Virus record (IMG/VR): IMGVR_UViG_3300031823_000001
Coordinates: 32,001-96,000 of that record
Length of the DNA: 64,000 bases
Strand: one strand, 5' to 3'
From: a virus
In this document: positions 28,670-57,594 of the stretch, one piece after another
Numbering within the stretch: position 1 is the first letter of the stretch
Layout of the letters: every line of letters begins with the position of its first letter
Program-made: the position numbers and the translations under genes
The notes under the pieces: model-generated
Told to the model about the DNA's origin: nothing
The model's input: only the letters and a program-made list of their open reading frames with translations
Databases searched by the model: none

Positions 28670-29026
28670 ATGAAGGAAATGAATCTCAGCAAGACGACCG
28701 TGAAGATCATAGATATCTTCCTGGAGGACCCGCAGGCGCCCCGGTACGGGTTCGAGCTGATGAAGCGCATCCACCGGGGCGCCGGCACGGTGTACCCGAT
28801 CCTCGCGGACCTGACGTCAGCCGGATGGCTGGACCGGAACCGGGAGGACGCCGCAGCCCTGGACAGGCCGCCGCGCATCTACTACACGCTCAGCGCCGGG
28901 GCAGCGGCCTACCTGGCCGCCCGGGTCATAGCGATGGCCGGAGACTCAACAGCGGAACACCAGGCGGCCCGAGCCGGAATCGAACCGGCGCCCTACCGCT
29001 TAGGAGGCGGTCGCTCTCTCCCCTGA
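28670..29026 (+). CDS. PadR-family transcriptional regulator
   Basis: YGFELMK.....GTVYPILADL...GWL...RIYYTLS; TACACT -10 six nt before ATG. Confidence 0.85.
   Translation: MKEMNLSKTTVKIIDIFLEDPQAPRYGFELMKRIHRGAGTVYPILADLTSAGWLDRNREDAAALDRPPRIYYTLSAGAAAYLAARVIAMAGDSTAEHQAARAGIEPAPYRLGGGRSLP
28945..28960. repeat. 3' arm of a 16-bp inverted repeat bracketing the tRNA array (partner 36635-36650)
   Basis: CTCAACAGCGGAACAC is the exact reverse complement of 36635-36650. Confidence 0.85.
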
Positions 29027-29037
29027 GCTACCGGGCC
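28965..29037 (-). tRNA. tRNA-Arg(CCT)
   Basis: cloverleaf; loop ctCCTaa. Confidence 0.9.
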
Positions 29038-29186
29038 ATGAGGTAAGCAGTAATCCATGCGAGCACCGAGACGACGGCAGCGAGAACGCACACCAGTTGG
29101 TACCCGTACATGCCCATGACGGCAGACGTAGCGGCGGAAGCCGACCCGGTGAAGACATAGGACACTACCTGCTGGAGCTTGTTCAC
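29028..29186 (-). CDS. possible 52-aa two-TM peptide inside the tRNA array
   Basis: GTG-start ORF, strongly hydrophobic; no clear SD. Confidence 0.35.
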   Translation of the reverse strand: MNKLQQVVSYVFTGSASAATSAVMGMYGYQLVCVLAAVVSVLAWITAYLMAR

Positions 29187-29200
29187 AGTGCTGATCGTAG

Positions 29201-29272
29201 AGGCGGAACGGGGGATCGAACCCCGGTAATGCGCTTTGCAGGCGCATGCCTGAACCACTCGGCCATACCGCC
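29201..29272 (-). tRNA. tRNA-Cys(GCA)
   Basis: cloverleaf; ctGCAaa; U73. Confidence 0.9.
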
Positions 29273-29412
29273 GTGGGTGCTCCCCCGTCCTATCCGCCAG
29301 GACCGGGGCCCTGGTTTTCCCTTCATCCGGCCATAGCATGTCTGAAAGCTTCGGGGACTGCTCAGGGGGCTGTTGTAACCGGGGTTGGACTACCGGCGAC
29401 CTGGGGTGCACG

Positions 29413-29486
29413 TGCGCCTGGAGGGACTTGAACCCCCGGCCTCGCCCTCCGGAGGGGCGCGCTCTTTCCTGCTGAGCTACGGGCGC
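29413..29486 (-). tRNA. tRNA-Arg(CCG)
   Basis: cloverleaf; ctCCGga. Confidence 0.9.
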
Positions 29487-29487
29487 A

Positions 29488-29574
29488 TGGAGGCGACACC
29501 TGGTGCCGGCCCAGGTCTGTCCGCGAGGACGGCGGATTTACAGTCCGCTGGGCGTGCTGCCGCCCACTGCCGCC
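29488..29574 (-). tRNA. tRNA-Tyr(GTA), atypical T and D loops
   Basis: ctGTAaa; long variable arm; CCA encoded; T-loop GCCGGCA. Confidence 0.75.
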
Positions 29575-29577
29575 ATT

Positions 29578-29739
29578 TGGCGCGAGCCCCTGGATTCTGC
29601 CAGGACTCCTCCGGGTGGAACCGGAGCGTGCTGTCCGGGGACGTTATCCATGGTTTCGTCCCCTTCGCATCGAGGTCCCTGTCCAGTCAGGCCCGTGCGC
29701 ACGGACCTGGCCGGAGCCGGCCTCTTACACCAGACTCGC
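29578..29739 (-). ncRNA. tRNA-like RNA with about 95-nt structured insertion in the D-loop
   Basis: acceptor GCGAGTC/GGCTCGC plus G-CCA; D-stem GTGT/GCAC; anticodon-like arm CTCCGG-TTCCAC-CCGGAG; T-like arm CCTGG-CAGAAT-CCAGG. Confidence 0.6.
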
Positions 29740-29740
29740 G

Positions 29741-29813
29741 TAGGCAATGACGGACTTGAACCGCCGACCTCTCCGGTGTGAACGGAGCGCTCTTCCAACT
29801 GAGCTAATCGCCC
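29741..29813 (-). tRNA. tRNA-Val(CAC)
   Basis: cloverleaf; ttCACac. Confidence 0.9.
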
Positions 29814-29814
29814 T

Positions 29815-29891
29815 TGGGGTGAATGACGAGGCTTGAACTCGCGACCTCCGGTACCACAAACCGGCGCTCTGCCGACTGAGCTACACCCACC
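29815..29891 (-). tRNA. tRNA-His(GTG)
   Basis: G-1, C73, CCA; ttGTGgt. Confidence 0.9.
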
Positions 29892-29950
29892 ATGAGGACG
29901 ACGGGGGACTGAGCCCGAAGGCGGTGTCAGCCTGCTCACCTGTCGTCCAG

Positions 29951-30023
29951 TGCGGGCGGAGGGACTCGAACCCCCAACACGATGCTCCGTAGGCACCAGC
30001 TCTATCCATTGAGCTACGTCCGC
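29951..30023 (-). tRNA. tRNA-Arg(ACG)
   Basis: cloverleaf; ctACGga. Confidence 0.9.
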
Positions 30024-30061
30024 ATTAACGGGGCGGTCCCCAGGTGCCGCCGGGGACCGCT

Positions 30062-30140
30062 AAGAGGAGGCAGGGCTCGAACCTGCAATGCGTGGGCTGG
30101 CATCCCGCGCGCCAACGTCTACCAATTCCGCCACTCCTCA
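30062..30140 (-). ncRNA. atypical tRNA-like RNA (Leu-type D arm, extended anticodon stem, loop atGCCag)
   Basis: canonical T-arm GCAGG-TTCGAGC-CCTGC; 6-bp acceptor; irregular D/anticodon junction. Confidence 0.55.
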
Positions 30141-30144
30141 CCCG

Positions 30145-30217
30145 TGGGCGTACCTGGGATCGAACCAGGGACCTCTTCCGTGTCAGGGAAACGCGCGTTC
30201 CGCTGCGCTACACGCCC
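30145..30217 (-). tRNA. tRNA-Val(GAC)
   Basis: cloverleaf; ctGACac. Confidence 0.9.
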
Positions 30218-30299
30218 AGATACCGCAGCCTGTTCAGTCTCAGGTCCGTCCCCGGAGGGATGCGAGTCCCGGGCCTAGGCCCGGGAGGTCGCTGCGGCG

Positions 30300-30373
30300 C
30301 GGTCGTGACGGGACTCGAACCCGCGATCTCCTCCTTGACAGGGAGGTGAGCACTCCGTCTGCTCTGCACAACC
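30300..30373 (-). tRNA. tRNA-Asp(GTC)
   Basis: cloverleaf; ctGTCaa. Confidence 0.9.
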
Positions 30374-30450
30374 ATGCCTGCTGCACCTTGGCGTCGGTGC
30401 TTCCCTCCCCGGACGGCCCGGGTGGTGTCGGAGCGTGCAGGACCGCTCGG

Positions 30451-30522
30451 CTCCGGTACCTGGACTCGAACCAGGAGGCGCGGATTAACAGTCCGCTCGT
30501 TTACCGATTAACGGACACCGGA
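30451..30522 (-). tRNA. tRNA-Asn(GTT)
   Basis: cloverleaf; ctGTTaa. Confidence 0.88.
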
Positions 30523-30703
30523 ATGGTTCCCCGCTTCCGGTCAGCAGTGCGGGGAGAACTGCGTTCCGAAGACCACCGGGAGCGACCCGGTGCCGACCTT
30601 GCCCTTTCTGAGAGCCGGCCGGGCCAGGGCCGGTGGACGGCCAGGCGGTAGCGTTCTGCCTCCCTTACACCCGGGCGTAAAGGCGCTAGGCCTGTCTCTC
30701 TCG

Positions 30704-30776
30704 TAGCGGAGGCAGGACTTGAACCTGCGACCTCTGGGTTATGAGCCCAGCGAGCTACCGGCTGCTCCACTCCGCG
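30704..30776 (-). tRNA. initiator tRNA-fMet(CAT)
   Basis: 1:72 mismatch; three G-C pairs in anticodon stem. Confidence 0.9.
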
Positions 30777-30891
30777 TCGTGCTCCCAGGGTATCCCGGGA
30801 GGTATCTGTCTCGCACCTGCGAATTTCAGCCCACCAGTGCAAGCGCCCGGATGCCGTAAGAGGGCCGTCCTCTCGCTCCGGCATCCCCAGG

Positions 30892-30963
30892 TGGCCCCAG
30901 ACGGTTCCGACCCGTCTTCTCCTGCTTGAAAGGCAAGCGGCCTAGCCATTGGCCGATGGGGTC
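30892..30963 (-). tRNA. tRNA-Glu(TTC), atypical T-loop
   Basis: ctTTCaa; T-loop GTCGGAA. Confidence 0.8.
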
Positions 30964-31009
30964 TAGAATGTTACTCGCCGAGTCGGCTGACAACACCTAT
31001 ACTTAATTC

Positions 31010-31414
31010 ATGAACACCACCACTCAAGGAGAAATAAGCGAAGGCCACGTCATCGCGCACCTACTGAAGCGCGGCTACGCCGTGTCCATACCATTCGGTA
31101 ACAACCAGCGATATGACCTTGTAATCGATGACGGAAGCCATTTGTGGCGAGCCCAGACAAAAACAGCTCGGCTAGAAAAGGGCTGCCTGGTGTTCAATTG
31201 CAGCAATAACGGATACAAGGGCGTACGCAAGACGTATCAGGGGCAGATCGACCTCTTCCTGATCTACAGCCCACACACAGATAAGGTCTATCGGGTACCC
31301 ATCGAAGCAGCTACTGTCACGTCGATGATGCTGCGTATCGACCCGACCAGGGCAGGGAGCCCCAAGTCACCGAAGCATCCGATCAAGTGGGCTAGCGACT
31401 ACGAGCTGACCTGA
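31010..31414 (+). CDS. PD-(D/E)XK homing endonuclease of the I-Ssp6803I-like family
   Basis: T..QGEISE..V...L...GY.VS.PFG...RYDL......RAQTKT motif; low GC; TATACT -10, leaderless. Confidence 0.85.
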   Translation: MNTTTQGEISEGHVIAHLLKRGYAVSIPFGNNQRYDLVIDDGSHLWRAQTKTARLEKGCLVFNCSNNGYKGVRKTYQGQIDLFLIYSPHTDKVYRVPIEAATVTSMMLRIDPTRAGSPKSPKHPIKWASDYELT

Positions 31415-31415
31415 G

Positions 31416-31490
31416 TGGTCCCGACGGGATTCGAACCCGTGTCAGTTGGTTGAGAACCAACCATCCTGAACCTGACTAGACGACAGGACC
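31416..31490 (-). tRNA. tRNA-Glu(CTC)
   Basis: cloverleaf; ttCTCaa. Confidence 0.9.
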
Positions 31491-31578
31491 ATGTTCCGCA
31501 CGGCTTGACCGACCGCCGGAGAGCACCCGGGGCTAGCAACCGGGTTCACGGGGCCGTCTTTAAGCGCGGCCGTTCAAG

Positions 31579-31651
31579 TGCGCCATGAGGGTCTCGAACC
31601 CTCGGCCAGCCCCTTAGAAGGAGGCTGCTCTGTCCGCTGAGCTAATGGCGC
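31579..31651 (-). tRNA. tRNA-Arg(TCT)
   Basis: cloverleaf; ctTCTaa. Confidence 0.9.
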
Positions 31652-31660
31652 AGATGCTAG

Positions 31661-31733
31661 TGGGCCGCCAGGGGATCGAACCCTGAACCCGTCGGTTAAA
31701 AGCCGACAACTCTGCCGATTGAGTTAGCGGCCC
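31661..31733 (-). tRNA. tRNA-Lys(TTT)
   Basis: cloverleaf; ctTTTaa. Confidence 0.9.
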
Positions 31734-31784
31734 GCGATCGGTATTCGCCGGGCCTGTTTCTCGTACATGTTTTCTCCGTCCCGG

Positions 31785-31857
31785 TGGGCCGTGTACGGAT
31801 TGAACGCACGACTCTCACCTTATAAGGGTGCCACTCTTACCACTGAGTTAACGGCCC
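31785..31857 (-). tRNA. tRNA-Ile(TAT)
   Basis: cloverleaf; ctTATaa. Confidence 0.85.
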
Positions 31858-31862
31858 CTGAG

Positions 31863-31935
31863 TAGCGGTAGAGGGGATCGAACCCCCGACAACCCGATCA
31901 TGAGTCGGGCGCTCTGCCGACTGAGCTACACCGCC
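31863..31935 (-). tRNA. elongator tRNA-Met(CAT)
   Basis: cloverleaf; ctCATga; GGCGGTG acceptor. Confidence 0.85.
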
Positions 31936-32021
31936 ATGGCGCACCCGGGGTCCCTCACAGCCTCCTGGCGAGCCAGGCTGCCGACCTACCCATCCGGTCG
32001 TACCCTCCGCCGGGTGCACTG

Positions 32022-32095
32022 TGGGCGAAAGAGGAATTGAACCTCTGACCTCCCGGTTATCAGCCGGACGCTCTAACCAACTGAGCTACCCGCCC
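32022..32095 (-). tRNA. tRNA-Ile(GAT)
   Basis: cloverleaf; ctGATaa. Confidence 0.9.
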
Positions 32096-32106
32096 ATTTA
32101 CCTGCG

Positions 32107-32192
32107 CAGAGGATTGAGGTGCCGACCCCCACGGCCCTTCCGGACCGCCGCCGGTTTTCGAGACCGGATGCGCCGCCGGGCGCGAACCCTCC
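32107..32192 (-). tRNA. tRNA-Ser(CGA), atypical T and D loops
   Basis: ctCGAaa; long variable arm; T-loop GTCGGCA; 4-nt D-loop. Confidence 0.75.
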
Positions 32193-32277
32193 ACTATCTG
32201 CGGTCGCCCCTGGGAACGCTTTGCGGCCGGAGCCTTGCACGGGTCGCAGCACCCGTAGCGGGGAGTCGAACCCCACG

Positions 32278-32362
32278 CGGAGAGAGCGAGATTTGAACTC
32301 GCGAGGCGTTGCCACCAACACGCTTTCCAGGCGTGCGCCCTAGGCCACTAGGCGACCTCTCC
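32278..32362 (-). tRNA. tRNA-Ser(GGA)
   Basis: cloverleaf with variable arm; ctGGAaa. Confidence 0.9.
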
Positions 32363-32524
32363 ATGCACGGCCGGATGACCTCCCGGGTTTCCCCTCGGGG
32401 GCTCGCTCCCGCCTGCCGCTGCCTTGCCGCGCGTCAGCAGCAGCGCAGTCACGAGCTGGAAGGTCATCCAAGTGCCGGTCCCGGCTTCCGGTGTACCCAG
32501 GGTGGGAGCCTGCCGGGACCCGAG

Positions 32525-32609
32525 CGGAGGGAGCGAGATTCGAACTCGCGAGGGCGGACCCAACTGCATTAGCGGTGCAGCGCCATAGGCCGGACTAGGC
32601 GACCCCTCC
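32525..32609 (-). tRNA. tRNA-Ser(GCT), C33
   Basis: loop ccGCTaa; variable arm. Confidence 0.85.
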
Positions 32610-32710
32610 ATGTGCGCTGCTCCCCCAGATCCAGGCTCGGGGTGGTAGCTCCCCGGCATAGTCCTGGAGCGGAGCCGGGGTCGCCAGGGTGCCGCAGCGC
32701 GGGCACCCTG

Positions 32711-32797
32711 TGGTGGGCGAAGAGGGACTTGAACCCTCACATCCTTGCGGGATACACGGGCCTGAACCGTGCGCGTCTGCCGTTCCGCCACACGCCC
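32711..32797 (-). tRNA. tRNA-Leu(CAG)
   Basis: ttCAGgc; variable arm; CCA. Confidence 0.9.
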
Positions 32798-32915
32798 ATG
32801 GAGTGCTCCGCCAACCCGAAGCCCTCTTAGATCTAGCGTCTCGGCAACCGTCATCTCACCAGCCCGGAGACCTCGGGGCTGGCAGCTCGTGGAGCCTGGT
32901 GTGTTGGCGACGCTG

Positions 32916-32988
32916 AGCGGATAACCGGGTTCGAACCGGCGACATCCACCTTGGGAAGGTGGCGCTCTGCCTGCTGAGCTACATCCGC
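32916..32988 (-). tRNA. tRNA-Gly(CCC)
   Basis: ttCCCaa; U73. Confidence 0.9.
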
Positions 32989-33084
32989 ATGACCTGGGGT
33001 CCCCTTCAGGCCGCGTCCGGCCTCGGAGGGCGCTCTGTACCATGGCTCGGGCTTTGGGCCAGCAGAGGCGTGGTACCCCAGTTG

Positions 33085-33156
33085 AGCGGATAACGGGGAT
33101 CGAACCCGCGACCTACACCTTGGCAAGGTGTCGCGCTACCACTGCGCCACATCCGC
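33085..33156 (-). tRNA. tRNA-Gly(GCC)
   Basis: ttGCCaa; U73. Confidence 0.9.
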
Positions 33157-33168
33157 ATGCTTACTGCG

Positions 33169-33241
33169 AGCCCGGAGCCGGATTCGAACCGGCGACCTGC
33201 TCCCTACCATGGAGCCGCTCTGCCGCTGGAGCTATCCGGGC
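33169..33241 (-). tRNA. tRNA-Thr(GGT)
   Basis: atGGTag. Confidence 0.9.
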
Positions 33242-33252
33242 ATGTTCTTGCG

Positions 33253-33327
33253 CTGGGCGGCAGGGACTCGAACCCCGAACCTCCGGGACCAAAGCCCGGC
33301 GCTCTGCCAAAGTTGAGCTAACGCCCA
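33253..33327 (-). tRNA. tRNA-Gln(TTG)
   Basis: ctTTGgt; U1-A72, G73. Confidence 0.9.
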
Positions 33328-33332
33328 CTGTG

Positions 33333-33405
33333 AGCCGCCTAACGGATTCGAACCGATGACCCTCCGCTTACAAGGCGACTGCTCTTCCTGCTGAGCTAAG
33401 GCGGC
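33333..33405 (-). tRNA. tRNA-Thr(TGT)
   Basis: ctTGTaa. Confidence 0.88.
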
Positions 33406-33523
33406 GTAGTCCGGGGTACCCTCCCGGTCCAGGACAACCAAGTACCACAGGCACGATGTTCCACAAGCCTGCCGTCCCCGCTCTGCCGGGCTCATATACG
33501 TTTCGCCCGGTTTATCCTGCCCG

Positions 33524-33610
33524 TGTCCGAGGAGGGAATCGAACCCTCACGCCCGTGGGTATGGGCACTAGCACCTCAAGCTAGCGCGGCTGCCGTTACG
33601 CCACCCGGAC
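33524..33610 (-). tRNA. tRNA-Leu(GAG)
   Basis: ttGAGgt; variable arm. Confidence 0.9.
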
Positions 33611-33866
33611 ATAAGTCAGACCTACACCCGGGCCGTACTGCCCGGCATCCTTCTCCCGCTTGTCCAGGCTCGGCCTGGCGAGTTCGGGCAACCTAACGCG
33701 GCCCCGAGGGGTCTCCCCTGCCTCGGTCTGACGATCATGGTGACGGCCTCAGCCCTAGCCGCCACGGGAGCCCCGCCTGTACCTCGCTCCTTCTAACTGC
33801 CGGACGTTTCCACCCTCCGCTACCCGGACGTATCTGCAAGGCCGAAGCCCTCGGTGGGACACTACG

Positions 33867-33939
33867 AGCCCCGGAACGGAATCGAACCGTTGACCTCACC
33901 ATTACGAGTGGCGTGCTCTGCCATCTGAGCTACAGGGGC
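33867..33939 (-). tRNA. tRNA-Thr(CGT)
   Basis: ctCGTaa. Confidence 0.88.
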
Positions 33940-34016
33940 TGGATGCCGCGCTCGATCCGTCTAAGCTACCGGCCCACGGGCGGACCGGACGGGACTCGAA
34001 CCCGCCTCTACGGCTG
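33940..34016 (-). ncRNA. circularly permuted tRNA-like RNA (T arm, loop-closed acceptor, D arm; YrlA-like topology)
   Basis: GCCGT-AGAG-GCGGG TTCGAGT CCCGT-CCGGTCC gcccgt GGGCCGG-TA-GCTT agacggatc GAGC-GCGGC-atcca. Confidence 0.7.
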
Positions 34017-34092
34017 CTGGGGTACCAGGTCTCGAACCTGGAACCTCGGGCACCAGACGCCCGCGCTCTGCCATTGATTGAGCTATACCCCA
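34017..34092 (-). tRNA. tRNA-Gln(CTG)
   Basis: gtCTGgt; U1-A72, G73. Confidence 0.88.
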
Positions 34093-34119
34093 ATGCGGCG
34101 TTTACCGTCTGCCGTGGAC

Positions 34120-34203
34120 TGGTGGGCAAGGAGGGGGTCGAACCCTCATGTCGAAGACACCGGGACTTGAGGCCGGCGCGTCTGCCTGTTCCGCCACTCG
34201 CCC
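34120..34203 (-). tRNA. tRNA-Leu(CAA)
   Basis: ctCAAgt; variable arm; CCA. Confidence 0.88.
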
Positions 34204-34395
34204 AGAGATTGCGGGGCCTGGCCGCCTTCCCCTTGCCAGCTCAGCGGCCAGGCCCGTGTGGACGGGGACCTGCCGCGAGTCCTGCCTGAGGCCTGAGCAC
34301 CGTCGCCCCACGGCCTGGAACCCTGCCGCACGGGTCTCCTCGCGGGTGGCCCGCGCCGCCCATCAGGAAGATACAGCATTTCAAGCCAGCTCGCG

Positions 34396-34468
34396 TGCGC
34401 CGTGAGGGACTCGAACCCCCGGCCCGCTGATTAAGAGTCAGCAACTCTACCGACTGAGTTAACGGCGC
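34396..34468 (-). tRNA. tRNA-Lys(CTT)
   Basis: ctCTTaa. Confidence 0.9.
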
Positions 34469-34469
34469 C

Positions 34470-34543
34470 TGGAGCGGATGACGGGAGTCGAACCCGCGTG
34501 ACCAGCTTGGAAGGCTGGGGCTCTGCCACTGAGCTACGTCCGC
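34470..34543 (-). tRNA. tRNA-Gly(TCC)
   Basis: ctTCCaa; CCA. Confidence 0.9.
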
Positions 34544-34678
34544 ATGTGCCAATTCCACGGCAGTCCTTCATGACGGAACTGCCTCCCTTAACGCAGGGGT
34601 CACAGGCAACCTTCGCGCCCGGGAGCACTTCACCCCGGGCTGCCGCGATGATCCTGAGTGCACCAGGTCGCTGCATCG

Positions 34679-34735
34679 CACGGTCCCGGGGTTCGAACCC
34701 GGCTCGGCCCGTAGGCCTGGCGTCCCGCCGACCGC
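34679..34735 (-). ncRNA. miniature anticodon-less tRNA-like cloverleaf
   Basis: GCGGTC/GACCGT stem; GGCG-gga-CGCC; GGCC-tacg-GGCC; canonical T-arm CCGGG-TTCGAAC-CCCGG. Confidence 0.5.
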
Positions 34736-34792
34736 TTTTCCGCCCGGGGCGCTTACCGGGCGGTCCAGGTGACGTCCGTACGCCTGTCACCG

Positions 34793-34866
34793 TGGTCACA
34801 GGGGCGATCGAATCCCCGGCCTGTCCCTTTTCAGGGGACCGCTCGTACCGTCTGAGCTATGTGACC
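34793..34866 (-). tRNA. tRNA-Phe(GAA)
   Basis: ctGAAaa. Confidence 0.9.
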
Positions 34867-34871
34867 TTGAG

Positions 34872-34981
34872 TAGCGCCCCGGGGGTCGAGCCCGGCCCTG
34901 GGCGAGTGACCACCGCAGGTGCCCGGTTACCCCGGGCCTGCGGCGTCCGCCCGCCCTGTGCGTGCCACCACACCAAGCGCG
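34872..34981 (-). ncRNA. tRNA-like RNA with greatly extended anticodon arm
   Basis: GCGCT/GGCGC acceptor; TG-GTGT..GCAC D-arm; about 60-nt rod; T-arm CCGGG-CTCGACC-CCCGG. Confidence 0.5.
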
Positions 34982-35031
34982 GTACGCGGGTTGCGGTCCC
35001 GCGCTCCGGTGACCCCTGGCCTGGGGTCCCG

Positions 35032-35106
<75 letters not shown>

Positions 35107-35216
35107 TTGAAAGGCAGTGCACCCGGGAAAGCTGCGGGGTACCCCGCGAACCCGGGACATGCGTCCATGCTTCGGCCGACCACCTGGTTCGTCCAGATTC
35201 CTGCCTCGGCACTGCC

Positions 35217-35291
35217 TGGTCGGGATAGCAGGGGTCGAACCTGCCGCCCCCCGGCCCCCAGCCGGGTGCGCTACCGCTGCGCCATATCCCG
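35217..35291 (-). tRNA. tRNA-Pro(GGG)
   Basis: ctGGGgg; CCA. Confidence 0.88.
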
Positions 35292-35574
35292 AAGCGAATC
35301 CCTGGCAGGGCGTGGCCCTTCACTACCGCCGCACTTACGCCGGGGATTCTGTTTGCTCGGTGCCAGGCCCTAGCGTCGCGATCACTTCCTGGTCACCTGC
35401 ACGGTACTGCCGGACGGCTCTCGCCTCCCCGTGCTGTGGATGCGCCTGCCCTTTTATGAGTCCCCGGCAGGTACAGGGAGGTTAACGCCGCCCACCCGGC
35501 CGCCGCATGGCAACCAGGACTACTCCCCCTTGCGCGAGAGGGCTTCGGGGGCTGCGCAAGCCCCAGGCGACTCG

Positions 35575-35645
35575 TCGGGACAGCCGGGAACGAGCCGGCA
35601 CCTTCCTGCTTCCAGAGCAGGGGCTCTGCATTGAGCTACATCCCG
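35575..35645 (-). tRNA. tRNA-Pro(TGG), atypical or degenerate
   Basis: loop tcTGGaa (C33, A37); T-loop CTCGTTC; D-loop lacks GG; stems intact. Confidence 0.65.
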
Positions 35646-35750
35646 TCACCCGCGTCCGGAAGCCGTTATCCGGTTATGCATTCGGGCTCGCGGCGCCCGC
35701 CCGGCATCCTCCAGCGCTGAGCCTAGGATTCGCGCTGGCAATCACCAAGG

Positions 35751-35824
35751 TGGAGAAGAGGGGACTCGAACCCCTGACAACCCGGTTGCGGGCCGGGTGC
35801 TCTGCCAGACTGAGCTACATCCCC
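35751..35824 (-). tRNA. tRNA-Ala(CGC), C33
   Basis: G3:U70; loop ccCGCaa. Confidence 0.85.
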
Positions 35825-36169
35825 AGGTACGCCGACGCGACTGTCTCCCGACGTGGTGCGACGCCGCTGACGTTTGGCTAAGGCAGTCAGCTAGCCCGGT
35901 ATAAGCCGGAAGCAGGCAGAGACCCCGCTGACAGGCGGAGGCGGCACCGTCGCGCCGCCCTGGTCTCCCGAAGAAGTCAAGCGCCCGGATCGCTCTCGGA
36001 CCTGCCTACGGACCTCGCTTGGCTAAAGAACATCTTCGTTGCCTTCCAACTAGTATCGGCTTCCGGCCGATCACGGCAGTGCTCTCGCGTTTGGTTACGG
36101 TTCGCCGCACCCGCTGTTGAGCTATGCCCCCTCAGGGGCACCCGGTCTGGGGCCGGGATCGCTGCCTCG

Positions 36170-36242
36170 TGGAGCCTATCGGATTCGAACCGATGACCTT
36201 CTCCATGCCATGGAGACGCGCTACCAACTGCGCTAAGGCCCC
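36170..36242 (-). tRNA. tRNA-Ala(GGC)
   Basis: G3:U70; atGGCat. Confidence 0.9.
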
Positions 36243-36634
36243 ATTGGAGCCGCCCCCACGGTCGCCGGGTAGCCACGAGGGCAGCCGGGCGCGAGGGCGG
36301 ACTCACTGATCCCTAAGATCCTGACGGCCGAGGCCCGGCGCATCCCGCTGGTGTGAACAGCGGGCCGCCTTATCCTCGAAGTGGATACCGCAGCGAGCAT
36401 CGGGATTCTAGCTGGCGAGGTGCCCGGTACAGGACCGTCTTGCGACAGCCCCAGCCTTTAACGGCTGCTGCTCCCCGGGAGTAGCTGCATTGTCTTTCAC
36501 CACGCCGAAATCTGAGCGACCGAGGAGTACCCGCCGGTTTGTTTCATGACTCCACCAGACGGTAAGTGTCCGTAGGTCTCCTAGCCCGGACGGGTCCCCG
36601 GTCGCTGGCGGCAGGTTGGCACCCTGCCGCATTC

Positions 36635-36650
36635 GTGTTCCGCTGTTGAG
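36635..36650. repeat. 5' arm of the 16-bp inverted repeat bracketing the tRNA array
   Basis: GTGTTCCGCTGTTGAG; partner 28945-28960. Confidence 0.85.
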
Positions 36651-36726
36651 ATGTCAAATATCGAGCCGGTTACCGTCCTCGGGGCTCTCGCCCGTCGGCC
36701 GGTGGCTGTAGGACCTTGCGGTCCAG

Positions 36727-36798
36727 CAGGGACGGAGGGGCTCGAACCCCCGGCACGCGGCTTTGGAGACCGCTGCTCTACCACTGAGCTACATCCCT
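36727..36798 (-). tRNA. tRNA-Trp(CCA)
   Basis: ctCCAaa; G73. Confidence 0.9.
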
Positions 36799-39819: not shown

Positions 39820-41364
39820 TTGGTGACGATTCCGTCCTTTACGTCATATCAGCCACCGCAAGTGTATGTAACGGACACTTCGATCCCGATCGTCGTGACC
39901 CCGCTGGTGCCCTCCACGGTCCTGACCCTCGTCGGCCCGGCGCTCGGCTACCGCACCGCCGTCCAGTCGCTGCTGCTCTACGCGGCCACCGCGACCGGCC
40001 TGACCTACACGGGCGTGTTCACCACCGCCCAGTCGGGGCCGCCCGTCGTCACGGCCCCGGTGGTCAGCACCCTGACCGGGACGATCCTCACCGTGGGCGT
40101 GGACTACGAGCTGACGGTGACCGCCGACCCGTCGGGCAACGCCGGGCTGGCCACCACGACGATCACCCGGGTCAACACGAGCACGAACGTCTCCGACGGC
40201 CAGCAGGTCTCGGTCACCTACAACTACGCCGACGCCGGCTACTACGCGCCGCAGGTCTTCTACGACCAGCAGAGCGTCATCAACGCCTACGGGCAGCCGT
40301 TCCTGTCGTCGGTGCCGGTGGCCCCGAACGCCTCCCAGGTGGCGAACCCGCTGTCGTGCGCCGCGCAGATCGCGTTCAGCAACGGGGCGACCACGCTGAT
40401 CTGCGTGGCCTGCAACCCGGCCGACGGGTCCCTGGAGCAGCAGCTCACCGCCGCGTACGCCAAGGTGGCGACCACCCCGGCGGCGACGATCGTGGTGCCC
40501 GTCTTCACCGACGACCTGACCCCGAGTTCGGGCACGGTCGCGGCCGAGGCGCAGTCGCTGGCGCAGGCGCTGAACACCGCGATGGTGACCGCGTACAACG
40601 ACGGGTTCCCCAGGATCGGCTTCTTCGGCCTGCCGAGGAACTACAGCGAGGGCGACATCCCGTTGCCGACGCTGGCGGCGAACATCGCCAGCCGCCGCCT
40701 GGTGCTCGCCTACCCGGAGATCGTGCTGCTCTACAACACGGCGACGAGCACGACGTTCCAGGCGTCGGGCTGCTACCTGGCGGTGGCGCTCGGCGCGGTC
40801 CTGTCGTCCCTGCCGGTCAACACCGGCATCACCAACCAGACGGTGCGGGGGACCGGCGGCCTGCCGCAGGCCGAGGTCACCCTGATGACCAACGCGTTCA
40901 TGAACACGGTCGCGGCTTCGGGCGTGTCGGTGTGCTCGCTGAACTACGCGGGGGCGCTGACCTGCCGCCAGGGCCTGACCACTGACATGTCGGCGATCAA
41001 CCGCCAGGAGATCTCGGTGGTGCGCCAGTCCGACTCGCTGTTCGTGGCGGTCAGCCAGGGCCTGATGAACGCGGGCCTGATCGGCCAGCCGATCACGGCG
41101 AACACGGTCAGCGCGGTGCAGGAGGCGGTTCTCGGCATCCTGGAGGGCGCGGTCACCCAGCAGGTGATCATCAGCTACACGAACCTGACGGTGCAGCAGC
41201 AGGCGTACCCGGGCGGCAACCCGACCATCATGAGCGTGACTTTCCAGTACCTGCCGGCGATGCCGCTGAATTTCATCACCGTGCAGATGTCGATCGACCT
41301 CTCGGGCGGCCTGGTGGCCACCCAGTCGCAGCAGAACGCCTCGGGCACCGGGACAGGCGCCTAA
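39820..41364 (+). CDS. tail sheath protein
   Basis: 514 aa; Y.PP.VYV N-terminus; RQGLTT...EIS.VR..D and F.Y.PA.PLNFI.V C-terminal sheath motifs. Confidence 0.88.
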   Translation: MVTIPSFTSYQPPQVYVTDTSIPIVVTPLVPSTVLTLVGPALGYRTAVQSLLLYAATATGLTYTGVFTTAQSGPPVVTAPVVSTLTGTILTVGVDYELTVTADPSGNAGLATTTITRVNTSTNVSDGQQVSVTYNYADAGYYAPQVFYDQQSVINAYGQPFLSSVPVAPNASQVANPLSCAAQIAFSNGATTLICVACNPADGSLEQQLTAAYAKVATTPAATIVVPVFTDDLTPSSGTVAAEAQSLAQALNTAMVTAYNDGFPRIGFFGLPRNYSEGDIPLPTLAANIASRRLVLAYPEIVLLYNTATSTTFQASGCYLAVALGAVLSSLPVNTGITNQTVRGTGGLPQAEVTLMTNAFMNTVAASGVSVCSLNYAGALTCRQGLTTDMSAINRQEISVVRQSDSLFVAVSQGLMNAGLIGQPITANTVSAVQEAVLGILEGAVTQQVIISYTNLTVQQQAYPGGNPTIMSVTFQYLPAMPLNFITVQMSIDLSGGLVATQSQQNASGTGTGA

Positions 41365-41976: not shown

Positions 41977-42245
41977 GATTCCTCCTGGCTGGGCTTACGG
42001 TCGAATTCCGGGCGGCTGACCCCGGCCGGCCACTTCTCCTGGCAGCCGCGCCTTTGGCATCGCAGGATCACCGGGACTGACCCCGCCTGGACTGTCGTGT
42101 CGGTGCGTTCGAGGTCGAACTTGCTGGTGGCCAGTATGGTGCGCGAGCAGGAGGCGAAGATCTTGTCGCGGACTATGTGGTAGCGGCGCGCTGTGCCGGG
42201 GTGGTTGTAGCTGGTGGCGTCGCGCATCGCCGCCCGGTAGCTCAT
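41973..42245 (-). CDS. hypothetical protein
   Basis: coupled via repeated junction. Confidence 0.65.
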   Translation of the reverse strand: MSYRAAMRDATSYNHPGTARRYHIVRDKIFASCSRTILATSKFDLERTDTTVQAGSVPVILRCQRRGCQEKWPAGVSRPEFDRKPSQEES

Positions 42246-42565
42246 GATTCCTCCTGGCCGGCGGCGAACCGGGACCTGATCCTGGTGCGGATCTCCCGCG
42301 AATCCATTACCTGCTGCCCGGCTTCCCGCCAGGTGACAGGGACGGCCCCGGCCTTTATGGCGGCGAGGCGCTTGGACTCGGTGACGTCGTAGTGCTGCAT
42401 GGGCCAGGGCTTGTCCTGGAACCAGGAGCGGTGCAGCCCGATCTTCGCGGCGAGGGCGTGCAGTTCCTCGATGTCGTCGTCGGGCCCGACGGTGAGGTGG
42501 GACCAGCGGGCGGTGATGCGGCCGACGGTGGCCTTCTGCCGCCAGTCGTCTACGTAGACGGTCAT
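42242..42565 (-). CDS. DUF4031 family protein
   Basis: MTVYVD...WSHL...EELHA.A..IGL.RSWFQ....HYDVT..KR. Confidence 0.8.
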   Translation of the reverse strand: MTVYVDDWRQKATVGRITARWSHLTVGPDDDIEELHALAAKIGLHRSWFQDKPWPMQHYDVTESKRLAAIKAGAVPVTWREAGQQVMDSREIRTRIRSRFAAGQEES

Positions 42566-43440
42566 GATTCCTCCTGGTCGGTGACGTGGGCGTAGGAACG
42601 GCGGCTGAGGATATTGCCGAGGGCGGCTTCCTTGATGCCGAAGCGCCCGGCTAGAACGGAGCGCTTCATTCCCTCGGCCCCGAGCCGCCGGATCTCGCGG
42701 ATCTGCTCGTCCGTGAACCGCGCATCGCTGCGGCGCGAGCGTGCCTTCGGCATGTCCCGGCAGATGATCGAGATGTTCGAGTGGTGAACGCCGAACTGCA
42801 ACCCGAGTTCGTGGATGCTCTTCCCCTCGGCTCGCAGGCGCCTGATCTCTGCGGCTTGAGGTGCGGTGAGCTTCCCGCCTGACATGCGGCGCTCGTGGGG
42901 AGCGATCGGCGGAGGATCGGTGATCCATCCCCAGCTCTTGCCCGAGAGCGCGAGCTGGACAGTGTCGAGCTTGCGGTCCAGTTCGGCGGCGATCTTCGGC
43001 GCACTCAGGCCGCCCCGGTAGAGAGTGCGGGCCTTGCGCACTAGGTCGGGACTCAGTGCGTCCTGGCCGCCGATCCCGAGAGACCGGCGCCTGATCGCCT
43101 TGTCGCGGTTATTGTCCGCGACGCTCCCGTCCCTGATGTGCAGCGGACGGCAGCAGGGCGGGTTGTCGCAGTCATGCCTTCCGATCACCGGCATGTACCC
43201 GTGCACCAGGTAGAAGGCGACTCTCTGGGCGTTGACTGTTCCCTTGCGTCCGGTGAGCGGGTTGATCATGCTGACGGCCCCGTAGTTCCCTCTCGGGCGC
43301 TTCCGGGTGGCTCTGAGGAACTCCCAGCAGGACTCGTCGTCGTCGATGATGTTGACCTTCGGCCAAAACTGCCTGTCGGGACCGGGAAGAGTTGTGAGCT
43401 GGCCGTCTCGGAGGACCTGCTCGTACTCGATGATGTTCAC
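42562..43440 (-). CDS. HNH homing endonuclease with C-terminal HTH repeats
   Basis: FW.KV...CWE; RH.CDNP.CC.P.H...G...DN..D; three HTH-like repeats; TAGTAT -10, leaderless GTG. Confidence 0.88.
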   Translation of the reverse strand: MNIIEYEQVLRDGQLTTLPGPDRQFWPKVNIIDDDESCWEFLRATRKRPRGNYGAVSMINPLTGRKGTVNAQRVAFYLVHGYMPVIGRHDCDNPPCCRPLHIRDGSVADNNRDKAIRRRSLGIGGQDALSPDLVRKARTLYRGGLSAPKIAAELDRKLDTVQLALSGKSWGWITDPPPIAPHERRMSGGKLTAPQAAEIRRLRAEGKSIHELGLQFGVHHSNISIICRDMPKARSRRSDARFTDEQIREIRRLGAEGMKRSVLAGRFGIKEAALGNILSRRSYAHVTDQEES

Positions 43441-43499
43441 GAACCCAATACTATCTTGCGAGAGATGGTGTGGCGCGAGGAACGTCCAGAGAGGGGGTG

Positions 43500-44059
43500 G
43501 TGACCACGGCCTCCACGCAAGCGAGAGTAGTCGGATCAGGCTACACTGTGCTGTCATACAACAGCCAGCCTATCGCTTACTGTGAGGGCTGGTTAATTGT
43601 GAGGATAGTGGGCAACGCGCTTTCAGCGATGTCGGCCAGCCTTATCAATTCATCCAGCCCATTGGTGCCGAGCACCCGGTCGAGATTGCCACGTCGCGCG
43701 TGATCTCCGGCGGCACGGTGATGATCACCATCCGCGAGTTGTGGAACCAGCCCGTGTGGTGGCAGCTCGCCGGGCTGACCGGCACCTGGGACATGGTGGA
43801 CATCTTCACCGCCCTGGCGGCCAACCCTAACTACGTCACCGCGTCGATGATTATCAAGCCGCCCGGTACGGAAAGCAACTCGGGTTCCTGGCGAGGCAAG
43901 GTATACCAGAACGTGACAGTCGTAGACATTAACGACGGCGAAACGGTTACCGTCGGGGCTCTGGCGGTCACTAAGGGTATTACCTTCGCGTACACCCACT
44001 ACGTGCCCCTCAACAGCAACCAGTACGGCGCTGGCCTGCTGGGAACCGCCACCGCCTGA
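43500..44059 (+). CDS. tail tube protein, split by an 8-nt insert (43593-43600); about 183 aa if bypassed
   Basis: frame 1 ...IAYCEGW then TTA; second frame EDSGQRAFSDVGQPYQFIQP...RELWN; follows sheath. Confidence 0.8.
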
Positions 44060-44985: not shown

Positions 44986-45164
44986 ACGTCAACGTGAACA
45001 CCAGCGTGGGCGCGGACAAGTCCGTGACCTGCGACATCGTGGTTGACGGCCGCCAGGTGGCCGTTACCTTCGCTGAGGGCGAGATCACCTTCGCTGTCGC
45101 TGCCCCGGGCGGCGACATCACTTTCCAGGTGCCCGAGTCCGTGGTTGCCCTGGAGCCCGCGTGA
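44982..45164 (+). CDS. hypothetical protein
   Basis: GGAGGAG SD; coupled both ends. Confidence 0.6.
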   Translation: MNVNVNTSVGADKSVTCDIVVDGRQVAVTFAEGEITFAVAAPGGDITFQVPESVVALEPA

Positions 45165-45703
45165 CCGAGGCATTCCCGGGCGAGGAGACCCCGGCCGGCG
45201 ACGGCCCGACCGACTCGCCCCTGGAGCTGCATGCCGAGCCCCACGACGAGGCCGCCTGGCGCGAGGACTTCACCGGGCTCCTCGTCATGGGCGCGCTGCG
45301 CGGCTGGTTCGAGTGGTGCGGGCACCGCATCGCCATCAAGACCCTCACCACCGAGGAGGAGCTGCTGGTCGCGCAGCTCACCCGCGAGTACGAGGGGGGC
45401 ATCGGCGGGACCAAGGCCTACGCCACGGCGCTGGCCGGGCTGTGCGTGGAGGCGGTGGACCGCCAGCCGATGCCGGTCCCTCTCGGCGAGCACCCCGGCC
45501 AGCCGAACAAGTGGGCGCTGGAGCGGTTCAACTACGCGCTCAGGTGGTACCCGCCGACCATCGACGCGATCTTCGACGCCTACCTCCGGCTGGAGGCCAG
45601 GCAGCGGGACGTCATGGCGGGACTGGGAAAATCCTCGGCCCAGGGGGATGCGACCCCTGGGCTGAGCGCCAGATCCGCCTCGCCGAGCGACGCGGGCTCC
45701 TGA
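45161..45703 (+). CDS. tail assembly chaperone (short form)
   Basis: position before tape measure; slippery site near end. Confidence 0.8.
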   Translation: MTEAFPGEETPAGDGPTDSPLELHAEPHDEAAWREDFTGLLVMGALRGWFEWCGHRIAIKTLTTEEELLVAQLTREYEGGIGGTKAYATALAGLCVEAVDRQPMPVPLGEHPGQPNKWALERFNYALRWYPPTIDAIFDAYLRLEARQRDVMAGLGKSSAQGDATPGLSARSASPSDAGS

Positions 45704-50672: not shown

Positions 50673-50740
50673 GCTGAGATTATAGCTTTTCTTGATAATC
50701 GCCCGCTACCCCTTAACCCCCGGAAGCAGCGGAGGTGCTC

Positions 50741-51349
50741 ATGGGAACGGCGACGCTCGGCTACCCGAACGGCCCCTCGGTGGCGTTCAGGATCGACCCT
50801 GACCTCATCGACTGGACGTGGGCCGTGCAGACGAACGTAGTAGAGACCATCGGCGGCCGGGTGATCCAGGTCCTCGGCGCGTCCCTGGACGACCTTACCG
50901 TCCAGGGCAGCCTCGGCCAGGACCACGCGGACAAGGTCACCGGGGAGAGCTGGCAGCAGGCCCAGGCGTTCCTCACCACCGTCACCGCGATCATGGAGCA
51001 GCAGGCCTCCGACGCCACCACGAACGCCCTGATGCACCCCCCGGCGGTGTTCACCTACCCGCCGAAGGGCTGGCGGTGGAACGTCTACGTCAAGTCGCTG
51101 ACCGACCCCGACGGGAGCAGCTCGGTCATCCTCAAGCCGGGCAAGGTAAACCAGCGCTACGTGCTGACCCTGTTCATCGTCAACGAGAGCGCGAGCCTGA
51201 CGGCCGCCGGGACCACGGCCAACGGCGCGCTCGCCCAGCAGTCAACCCTGGCGATCTCCCAGTTCATGGCCAGGATCAGCGACGGCGTCGGGTGGACGGC
51301 CAACAAGTACACCGGCATCTACACCGGCAGCACGCCGCCCGGCACCTGA
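50741..51349 (+). CDS. baseplate / tube-initiator type protein
   Basis: F.IDP..I.W...T.V.ETIGGRV.Q.LG; tail operon position. Confidence 0.65.
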   Translation: MGTATLGYPNGPSVAFRIDPDLIDWTWAVQTNVVETIGGRVIQVLGASLDDLTVQGSLGQDHADKVTGESWQQAQAFLTTVTAIMEQQASDATTNALMHPPAVFTYPPKGWRWNVYVKSLTDPDGSSSVILKPGKVNQRYVLTLFIVNESASLTAAGTTANGALAQQSTLAISQFMARISDGVGWTANKYTGIYTGSTPPGT

Positions 51350-57038: not shown

Positions 57039-57551
57039 CTAGGACGGCAGCGGGTTGAGGTAGGCGTGCTCTCCGAACAGCTCCAGGGCAGCCTCGTTGT
57101 AGGCGCGGGCGCAGGCTTCCTGGCTGTCCGAGTGCAGGATGGTCCGAGTCTTTCCTTTTATGGTGATGCGGGCGCGCCACTTATTCATCTGCTTGTCCCA
57201 TCCGACCCCCTTGTACTTAGAGGTGTGCCGCGTAAGGTCCGGTCTTCTGTTCTTGTCATTGTGCAGGCCGTCGCGCAGGTTGCGGCGGCGGTTGTCCAGC
57301 GTGTCATGGAAGATGTGATCCGTGCGCGGGTATCCGGTGATCATCGAGTGCATGGAGATGATCTTGTAACCTCCGCCGATCTGACGGATGGCGGTGCGAG
57401 CGTACGGCCCGTTGGTACGTCCGTTGCGCTTGATTTCAAGCACGTGTCACCTGTGCCTGATGACCAGCTCGTAATCTTCGACGTCGATTCGTGCGACTCT
57501 CCCGGCTGCCTTCTTGCCGGACAGGGGAACCTCGATATGCGCCGTCGCCAA
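57039..57551 (-). pseudogene. HNH-AP2 homing endonuclease with internal TGA (57447-57449)
   Basis: GGAGG plus TTG start; ...DYELVIRHR*HV...; DH...DTLDNRR.NLR; AP2 SKYKGV.W....KW.ARI...ARAYN.AA..LFGEHA.LN. Confidence 0.8.
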
Positions 57552-57594
57552 TGGTGGGCCTCCGTGCTCATCGTCTCTAAGGGGGTGATGCACC

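Follow-up and report, generated by a model that had tools for sequence, protein, structure and literature searches.

Programmed translational bypassing is among the rarest known departures from standard decoding. To our knowledge, it has so far been documented in phage genes only for gene 60 of T4 and for the terminase of phiHau3. UUA-triggered bypass rests on one phage terminase and two prophages, namely the UUA-headed gaps in the large terminase of the Streptomyces phage phiHau3 and in the two prophages (Smith et al. 2013; Antonov et al. 2023, PMC10732093); bypass at phiHau3 g6/g7 was demonstrated in E. coli, where UAA stood in for UUA and the junction peptide was detected by mass spectrometry (PMC10732093). 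In T4, MobA and the gene 60 gap form a self-protecting element: the gap, like the polymorphisms on either side of it, is part of the MobA element and keeps the nuclease from cutting its own genome (Bonocora 2011, via bioRxiv 10.1101/2022.08.31.505936). Here we describe a tail tube gene interrupted by 8 nt, TTAATTGT, in a 64,000-nt stretch of viral DNA (the window), bases 32001 to 96000 of the complete 161,740-bp virus record IMGVR_UViG_3300031823_000001, which has direct terminal repeats and 69% G+C. From sequence comparison, we consider it likely that this gene works and that ribosomes skip the 8-nt gap after stalling at UUA, hopping from UGG to UGU and resuming at GAG to make a protein of 183 aa.

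The tube gene extends from GTG 43500, directly preceded by the ribosome binding site GAGAGGGGG, to the TGA ending at 44059. Its zero frame reads M-TTASTQARVVGSGYTVLSYNSQPIAYCEGW and has TGG 43590-43592 as its last codon (TAC TGT GAG GGC TGG, 43578-43592); after TGG the same frame continues as TTA ATT GTG AGG into unrelated sequence up to TGA 43701-43703, and TAA 43594-43596 shuts the +1 frame. The conserved continuation, EDSGQRAFSDVGQPYQF, is encoded in the -1 frame from GAG 43601. The initial annotation had reported that IAYCEGW is followed by an in-frame TTA and that the continuation lies in a frame closed upstream and without a start until 43700, with no classical heptamer in view and two direct repeats nearby, and each of these statements holds. 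Indeed, TTA 43593-43595 is in frame with GTG 43500; the -1 frame is shut by TGA 43583-43585, is open from 43586 onward and contains no ATG, GTG, or TTG before GTG 43700; the codons GGC TGG TTA ATT GTG contain no slippery X XXY YYZ heptamer; and TGTGAGG repeats lie 17 nt apart at 43581-43587 and 43598-43604. Hundreds of homologues (167 to 177 aa, including the 176-aa protein P0001) are unbroken in this region (...IAYCEGWEDSGQRAF...), and in the DNA of uninterrupted homologues the TGG and GAG codons are adjacent. The extra DNA of the window is therefore exactly TTAATTGT, with boundaries set by frameshift-aware alignment, and it splits the conserved YCEGW/EDSGQR between the Trp and Glu codons (W29/E30; a slash marks the point of insertion). 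Joining 43500-43592 to 43601-44056 gives 31 + 152 = 183 aa.

In the mechanism that we propose, UGG (Trp29) would occupy the ribosomal P site and UUA the A site. UUA would be decoded slowly, as the rarest sense codon, unread by the phage's 40 tRNAs and presumably in need of a scarce bldA-type host tRNA. During the stall, the peptidyl-tRNA-Trp would release UGG, the mRNA would slide by 8 nt, and the peptidyl-tRNA would re-pair with UGU through the first two bases, so that decoding restarts at GAG. The product would be a 183-aa tube protein with the normal junction ...YCEGWEDSGQR... (junction peptide ...PIAYCEGWEDSGQR). The hop from UGG to UGU was the reading put forward in the initial annotation, and comparison with homologues favors it, as it is the sole reading that would give the conserved junction and it fits the rule of the related inserts described below.

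Tube loci were gathered from IMG/VR, from metagenome contigs and from contigs behind truncated gene calls, yielding about 100 distinct sequences, in which inserts were located via conserved peptide anchors and frameshift-aware alignment. Mini-inserts are present in 16 of the 75 distinct scorable related loci. The alignment contains 17 interrupted alleles with one or two inserts each, amounting to 22 occurrences of 2 to 16 nt at seven sites between codons 11 and 47. TTA directly follows the last good codon in 21 of these 22 occurrences, and TAG does so in the remaining one. Furthermore, the 3 nt preceding the resume codon are mostly identical or synonymous to the take-off codon (TGG/TGG in L067 and L007, TCT/TCT, TCC/TCC, TCT/TCC, TAT/TAC, CAG/CAG, and TTT/TTT). 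Across tube loci, an in-frame TTA occurs only five times in 11,374 codons examined, and three of the five are insert heads.

At W29/E30, the inserts are TTAATTGT (the window and L078), TTAATTGG (L067), TTACCTGG (L007), and TTAATGC (L005/L058), and these sister alleles of the window insert have a perfect TGG landing codon in L067 and L007 and a TGC in L005. The other sites are S11/G12, with inserts of 14, 15, 15, and 16 nt and one 6-nt insert headed by TAG; Y13/T14 and C26/E27, each with TTAC; T14/V15, with TTAGGCT; Q45/F46, with TTAGGCAG and TTACTTAG; and F46/I47, with TT, creating TTT-TTA. In the divergent allele L056, a manual reading gives TCC-TTAGGGAGCTAA-TCC-GGA. The 6-nt insert at S11/G12, in L172 (1501-1600), begins with the stop codon TAG rather than TTA (TCT-TAG-TCC-GGA). 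The longer S11/G12 inserts (L004, L056, and L065) have GGAG-like motifs and, beyond these, a stop that immediately precedes the landing codon, features reminiscent of T4 gene 60. In the two-insert alleles L057, L008, L108, and L101, the two lengths sum to a multiple of three (14+7, 4+2, 4+2, and 4+8), yet the zero frame meets a stop before the second site.

The 22 related inserts and both phiHau3 sites have a rule in common, that is, a take-off codon, an in-frame UUA, a short gap, a cognate or near-cognate landing codon and a resume codon. On this basis, a single rule, in which the P-site tRNA re-pairs at the next cognate triplet, would fit inserts of 2, 4, 6, 7, 8, 14, 15, and 16 nt. Several gaps carry a stop in the resume frame: L005/L058 (TAA), L065, L057, and a site in a baseplate-J-like gene of the window discussed below (TAG). 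In L004 and L056, the insert is in frame yet contains a stop. As these sequences read, only landing at the last triplet is productive in such stop-containing gaps.

The two phiHau3 terminase sites (GGC-TTACTCC-GGT-AAG and TCT-TTAACGG-TCC-ACG, from GenBank JX182369) closely resemble this arrangement. In both systems, a take-off sense codon is followed by an in-frame UUA heading a frame-breaking insert (7 to 10 nt in phiHau3) and then by the resume codon; the insert closes with a triplet that is synonymous to the take-off codon in phiHau3 (GGC..GGT and TCT..TCC) and identical or synonymous to it in most related tube inserts; the flanks are contiguous in homologues; and the phage is a high-GC actinophage in which UUA is nearly absent. 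At the sequence level, the window site thus appears to share the features of the phiHau3 sites, save for its imperfect landing codon, which is only near-cognate in the window allele. The systems differ in other respects. The gapped gene is a terminase in phiHau3, whereas here a high-copy tail tube gene and a baseplate gene are concerned, and the relatives of the window show seven sites and lengths of 2 to 16 nt within one gene. The inserts described here are tied to HNH homing-endonuclease genes and a recoded tract, whereas HNH genes and homing are unmentioned in PMC10732093; such a nuclease link is not evident in phiHau3, since gp1, the one HNH gene annotated there, is 1.4 kb upstream of the terminase. 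Finally, phiHau3 is a 50-kb temperate siphovirus, whereas the window belongs to a 162-kb myovirus with 40 tRNAs, and the rationale of a lysis/lysogeny sensor therefore need not apply here.

Both the codon usage of the genome and its tRNA complement are in keeping with a slow UUA. TTA is the rarest sense codon of the phage genome, with 7 of the 26,114 codons of long open reading frames (ORFs) as an upper bound (at most 0.27 per 1000). Most of these seven fall outside true coding frames, as judged by a GC-by-codon-position test; counting in tblastn high-scoring segment pairs was unreliable owing to spurious high-GC frames. Among the 40 tRNA genes of the array, most codon families are represented, several rare A-ending codons included, and the two take-off codons of the window genome (TGG in the tube gene and CAA in the J gene) have their tRNAs, Trp(CCA) and Gln(UUG). 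Leu(UAA), Leu(UAG), and Tyr tRNAs are absent from the 40 genes of the array, and tRNA-Leu(UAA) is also absent from the tRNA-bearing relatives G001, G002, and G004. Since the phage is without a UUA-reading tRNA, UUA decoding must rely on the host. In Streptomyces, the UUA tRNA is bldA, which is limited by development (PMC10732093), and the Lsr2-like gene found after the tube gene points to an actinomycete as the likely host of this soil phage.

Several observations bear on the identity of the gene. It is flanked by the tail sheath gene and the tail assembly chaperone gene, the position of a tail tube by synteny, and its sole sequence family is phrog_2756, annotated "virion structural protein." A sequence-profile search of the PDB returned no match, and a blastn comparison of the locus with 50,697 INPHARED phage records returned none either, hence no cultured relative is available for comparison. 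We modeled the uninterrupted homologue P0001 (176 aa, 92% identical) with 85 diverse relatives, reaching a predicted local distance difference test (pLDDT) score of 88.4, after an earlier model from 14 close sequences had been poor (58.7). The best Foldseek matches of the P0001 model are the tubes of phage 812, diffocin, PVC, and the S. coelicolor contractile injection system (E 3.6e-6, template modeling score ≤0.72). The predicted structure supports a contractile-tail tube protein with an Hcp-like fold, and this, together with the position between sheath and chaperone, justifies the "tail tube" label used in the initial annotation.

The interrupted gene also bears the marks of selection. Among interrupted alleles, the ratio of nonsynonymous to synonymous divergence (dN/dS) of the 3' segment is 0.05 to 0.18 at dS values of 0.5 to 1.4, and it is 0.07 to 0.11 between the window and the other interrupted alleles. 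In the 5' part and in the 33 codons from the insert to GTG 43700, synonymous differences are many and the protein sequence is conserved; the zero-frame extension after UUA (23 to 50 codons) is variable in length and without conservation. As judged from these comparisons, interrupted tube alleles are under purifying selection, with dN/dS near 0.1, a pattern that would count against the gene being split, a pseudogene or an artefact.

The distribution of inserts among tube loci follows that of an additional segment of DNA. Of 25 loci in which sheath and tube are separated by over 250 nt of extra DNA, 16 carry inserts, against 0 of 50 loci that lack such DNA (Fisher p 2.4e-10; the loci are phylogenetically related). 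In most of these loci, the extra DNA encodes homologues of the window HNH protein, more distant HNH proteins, AP2-HNH proteins or short remnants. Homologues of the window HNH gene adjoin interrupted tube genes in L005, L067, and L078, and in L007 the insert is kept beside a decayed HNH gene. In the window, the HNH ORF, with helix-turn-helix (HTH) domains, stands head-to-head with the tube gene, and its homology to relatives starts at residue 27 (about 43479). A gene of unknown function (phrog_4887, 42242-42568, minus strand) lies directly downstream of it within the sheath-tube insertion and may be a passenger of the nuclease cassette.

The stretch following the insert is recoded. Over the 36 nt 3' of the insert, the identity of the window to the closest alleles free of a homing-endonuclease gene (HEG) is 0.61 to 0.67, versus 0.86 to 0.94 in the gene body, and all changes are synonymous. 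The median G+C at third codon positions (GC3) of the 15 codons after the W/E site is 0.67 in alleles with extra DNA versus 0.87 in the others (p 1.5e-6). Few stretches are as conserved in nuclease-free alleles as this recoded one, which would make it a suitable nuclease target. In L013, L014, and L091, an HNH gene lies upstream, no insert is present, and the 5' tract is strongly recoded (GC3 0.47), which suggests that target immunity may be achieved there via synonymous changes alone. In the origin that we propose, the gap would be part of a homing-endonuclease cassette whose HNH gene entered between sheath and tube, and the insert and the adjacent synonymous tract most likely destroy the nuclease target in their own genome, the effect that the 50-nt gap of T4 gene 60 has on the MobA target. 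By this analogy, the insert probably shields its own genome from nuclease cleavage.

The resemblance to T4 gene 60/MobA (Huang 1988; Manning & Atkins, bioRxiv 10.1101/2022.08.31.505936) is considerable: the gap lies near the 5' end of an essential gene, beside an HNH gene; it accompanies the nuclease or persists in genomes keeping only a nuclease remnant; divergent synonymous polymorphisms flank the site; and take-off and landing codons match, in two of three bases in the window allele. The gap, however, is 50 nt long in gene 60 and 8 nt here, and the A-site codon is UAG after take-off from GGA in gene 60, whereas it is the rare sense codon UUA here. A take-off stem-loop, a nascent-peptide signal and sequence homology of the gene 60 kind were looked for at the window site and none was found, the sole hairpin being located 5' of the site. 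The window cassette is thus an analogue of T4 gene 60/MobA and, not being homologous, not a member of that system. In the literature searched, we found no report of phiHau3-type gaps combined with a T4-type nuclease cassette, of their occurrence in a major tail gene, or of multiple sites.

Two further systems show more distant similarities. Hungry-codon hops in E. coli are low-level laboratory events, whereas the event proposed for the window would be maintained by selection and would have to furnish a major structural protein. These short hops (Weiss 1987; Gallant & Lindsley; cited in PMC10732093) also involve a slow A-site codon and a peptidyl-tRNA that detaches and re-pairs at a nearby cognate codon, over a range of distances that includes the 2 to 16 nt of the window family. 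Likewise, in the Byp elements of Magnusiomyces capitatus mitochondria (Lang 2014; Nosek 2015; cited in PMC10732093), many mobile frame-breaking inserts in essential genes are bypassed, with matching take-off and landing codons and an unassigned or slow A-site codon; they differ in being 27 to 55 nt long and structured, in having no nuclease link and in belonging to a different domain of life.

Among the alternatives to a hop, a -1 (or +2) frameshift at or near the stalled UUA deserves the closest attention, although we regard it as unlikely. GUU AAU UGU would then be read after Trp, giving 186 aa with an extra Val-Asn-Cys and a junction reading YCEGWVNCEDSGQR (...GWVNCEDSGQR). Slow codons are known to promote frameshifting, an alternative also discussed for phiHau3 (PMC10732093); the resume frame is open from the upstream TGA onward; and a +2 shift followed by cognate re-pairing would describe the 2-nt inserts of relatives (TTT-TT-ATC and CTC-TT-ACC). 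However, the window site lacks a slippery heptamer, tRNA-Trp would be unable to re-pair there at -1 (CUG), and the homologous L005 insert (TGG-TTAA-TGC-GAG) needs the opposite shift. A simple frameshift is unworkable in L005 because a TAA lies in the resume frame inside its gap. More generally, the varied insert lengths demand shifts of different sign and size, whereas the single hop rule would cover all of them. The extra residues would also land within a conserved beta-strand: W29/E30 lies inside strand 26-31 of the confident P0001 model, in a nearly invariant motif, so that added residues would be costly. Re-initiation was rejected because the resume frame is without a start codon.

The insert might instead be lost at the nucleic acid level, the mRNA being edited or processed, or an insert-free genome subpopulation supplying the tube. 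We find this quite improbable. The TGTGAGG repeats could in principle support deletions, but the repeat-mediated 17-nt deletion raised in the initial annotation would take out the conserved Gly-Trp, contrary to the uninterrupted homologues, and was rejected. Moreover, the insert is fixed in independent assemblies from other samples (L078 and L067), dependence on a helper genome would not keep dN/dS near 0.1 in interrupted copies, and we know of no bacterial or phage process that excises 2 to 16 nt from mRNA. The gene could also be dead, as a pseudogene in a defective phage, or split into a 67-aa N-terminal peptide and a C-terminal piece from GTG 43700, much as gene callers present it (a 119-aa ORF, P0038, and the short N-terminal ORFs P0217 and P0232). 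This seems to us very improbable: the intact tube gene elsewhere in the genome that the initial annotation had worried about is missing, the complete genome holding no second copy, and the 33 start-less codons before GTG 43700 are protein-conserved, whereas the zero-frame extension past UUA is not; in the structure model, the N-terminal strands belong to the tube fold. The record is a metagenome-derived contig, but a sequencing or assembly artefact, the latter also a concern of the initial annotation, is barely credible. The identical insert recurs in L078, an independent, diverged metagenome contig (dS 0.71 to the window), identical or sister W29/E30 inserts recur in at least five independent assemblies, and at least 16 further interrupted alleles follow the TTA rule given above; an AT-rich 8-nt insertion would also be atypical as an error.

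Some observations nevertheless weigh against the hop. The landing codon of the window, UGU, offers tRNA-Trp only two of three bases of the take-off UGG, and the landing match is poor in two related inserts, L008a and L057b. The resume frame is open across the window gap, which is compatible with a -1 slip to 186 aa. Short hungry-codon hops in E. coli are usually inefficient, whereas the tube is a very high-copy protein. The hairpin predicted 5' of the site, examined as a stimulator, is no stronger in insert alleles than in alleles without insert, and we found no dedicated stimulator confined to insert alleles. A target-site duplication at the DNA level is another possible explanation of the matching end codon. 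Lastly, the Fisher and Mann-Whitney p-values overstate independence because the loci are mutually related; despite this kinship, the link between insert and nuclease is seen at seven sites and with nucleases of several families.

The window contains a second such insert, within a baseplate-J-like gene (57751-57766: TAT CAA TTAG CAA TAC), with a perfect CAA/CAA match. Eight relatives are uninterrupted at this site (QMLAYQ/YDINSMTG). The 5' part of the J gene is likewise recoded toward lower GC3, and no significant RNA structure was found at the site. A remnant of an AP2-domain endonuclease is encoded head-to-head with the J gene; the N-terminal part of this endonuclease (57341-57625, minus strand) is in a different frame from the AP2 part, so that, as its sequence reads, the gene appears either decayed or itself recoded.

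We searched for frame breaks in whole genomes by tblastn, a blastn indel listing being too noisy at 70 to 80% identity. Among five genomes of the phage group, the only internal breaks are TTA associated (the tube and J genes of the window genome, G000, and the tube gene and one 2-nt site of G003), and the other breaks are ordinary gene boundaries. A codon-usage scan for frame breaks found nothing; the insert flanks have atypical, recoded codon usage. The 2-nt site of G003 (G003:C1:119121-119127, minus strand) lies in a tail-module gene homologous to window 50735-51349 and reads GTC CTC TT ACC with an in-frame TTA. There, re-pairing of tRNA-Leu(GAG) from CUC to CUU (+2) could restore the conserved sequence; no HNH gene adjoins this site. 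At window 62327-62353 (G000 94327-94353), translated matches of about 460 to 900 aa and about 1030 aa abut in different frames in the five compared genomes, within a 1915-codon open frame, and represent either two adjacent genes or a conserved frameshift. The positions of the features of the window are collected in the table.

Table. Features of the interrupted tube and J genes and of their surroundings in the window
Feature	Position	Strand	Remarks
Array of 40 tRNA genes	28963..36798	-	ARAGORN and Rfam; includes Leu(CAA), Leu(CAG), Leu(GAG), Trp(CCA), Gln(UUG)
Tail sheath gene	39820..41364	+	phrog_2839; ends 2.1 kb before the tube start, versus 30-160 nt in most (HEG-free) relatives
HNH-type endonuclease ORF with HTH domains	42562..43557	-	phrog_1872, phrog_59, weak PF13392
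Tube gene, 5' segment	43500..43592	+	GTG start to take-off TGG (43590-43592); 31 zero-frame codons; agrees with uninterrupted homologues over their residues 1-29
Predicted RNA hairpin	43563..43594	+	-19 to -21 kcal/mol; take-off codon and UU of UUA form the end of the 3' arm
Tube gene insert TTAATTGT, 8 nt	43593..43600	+	in-frame rare TTA (43593-43595), landing-like TGT (43598-43600); missing from 50 HEG-free alleles
Tube gene, 3' segment	43601..44059	+	resume GAG to stop TGA (44057-44059); 152 codons, -1 frame; 92% identical to P0001
Recoded tract	43601..43672	+	synonymous; low GC3 (0.53 versus 0.83)
Tail assembly chaperone gene	45161..45703		downstream of the tube gene
AP2-domain (HNH-AP2 type) endonuclease remnant	57039..57446	-	PF00847 AP2
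Baseplate-J-like gene, 5' segment	57595..57756	+	TTG start to take-off CAA (57754-57756)
J-gene insert TTAGCAA	57757..57763	+	UUA, then landing CAA (57761-57763); TAG in the gap shuts the resume frame
Baseplate-J-like gene, 3' segment	57764..59422	+	phrog_6 baseplate wedge

The locus and its relatives constitute a natural series for the rules of take-off, scanning, and landing, with seven positions, gaps of 2 to 16 nt, landing codons that are perfect, synonymous, or mismatched, and gaps with and without stops. This series brings together the UUA hop of the Streptomyces type and the logic of homing endonucleases known from T4 gene 60, and it suggests a general way in which selfish nucleases may give rise to recoding sites. 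Genes of this kind are misannotated as fragments or pseudogenes in phage and metagenome records.

A broader proposal, which we advance tentatively and hold to be rather doubtful at present, is that UUA acts in infected cells as a signal to slide to the next cognate codon throughout this family of actinophages of about 160 kb. If true, the phage would supply nearly every tRNA but that for UUA, so that small TTA-headed indels at homing-endonuclease targets are tolerated, and nuclease cassettes would gain a general and evolvable means to immunize essential genes, with which the seven tube sites are consistent. For a major virion protein to be made in this way, hopping would need to reach sufficient efficiency in the absence of signals as elaborate as those of T4 gene 60. 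Late structural-gene expression would also be tied to the level of the bldA-type tRNA of the host, i.e., to its developmental state. Should tail synthesis be confirmed to depend on UUA decoding, phage production would be coupled to the tRNA physiology of the host.

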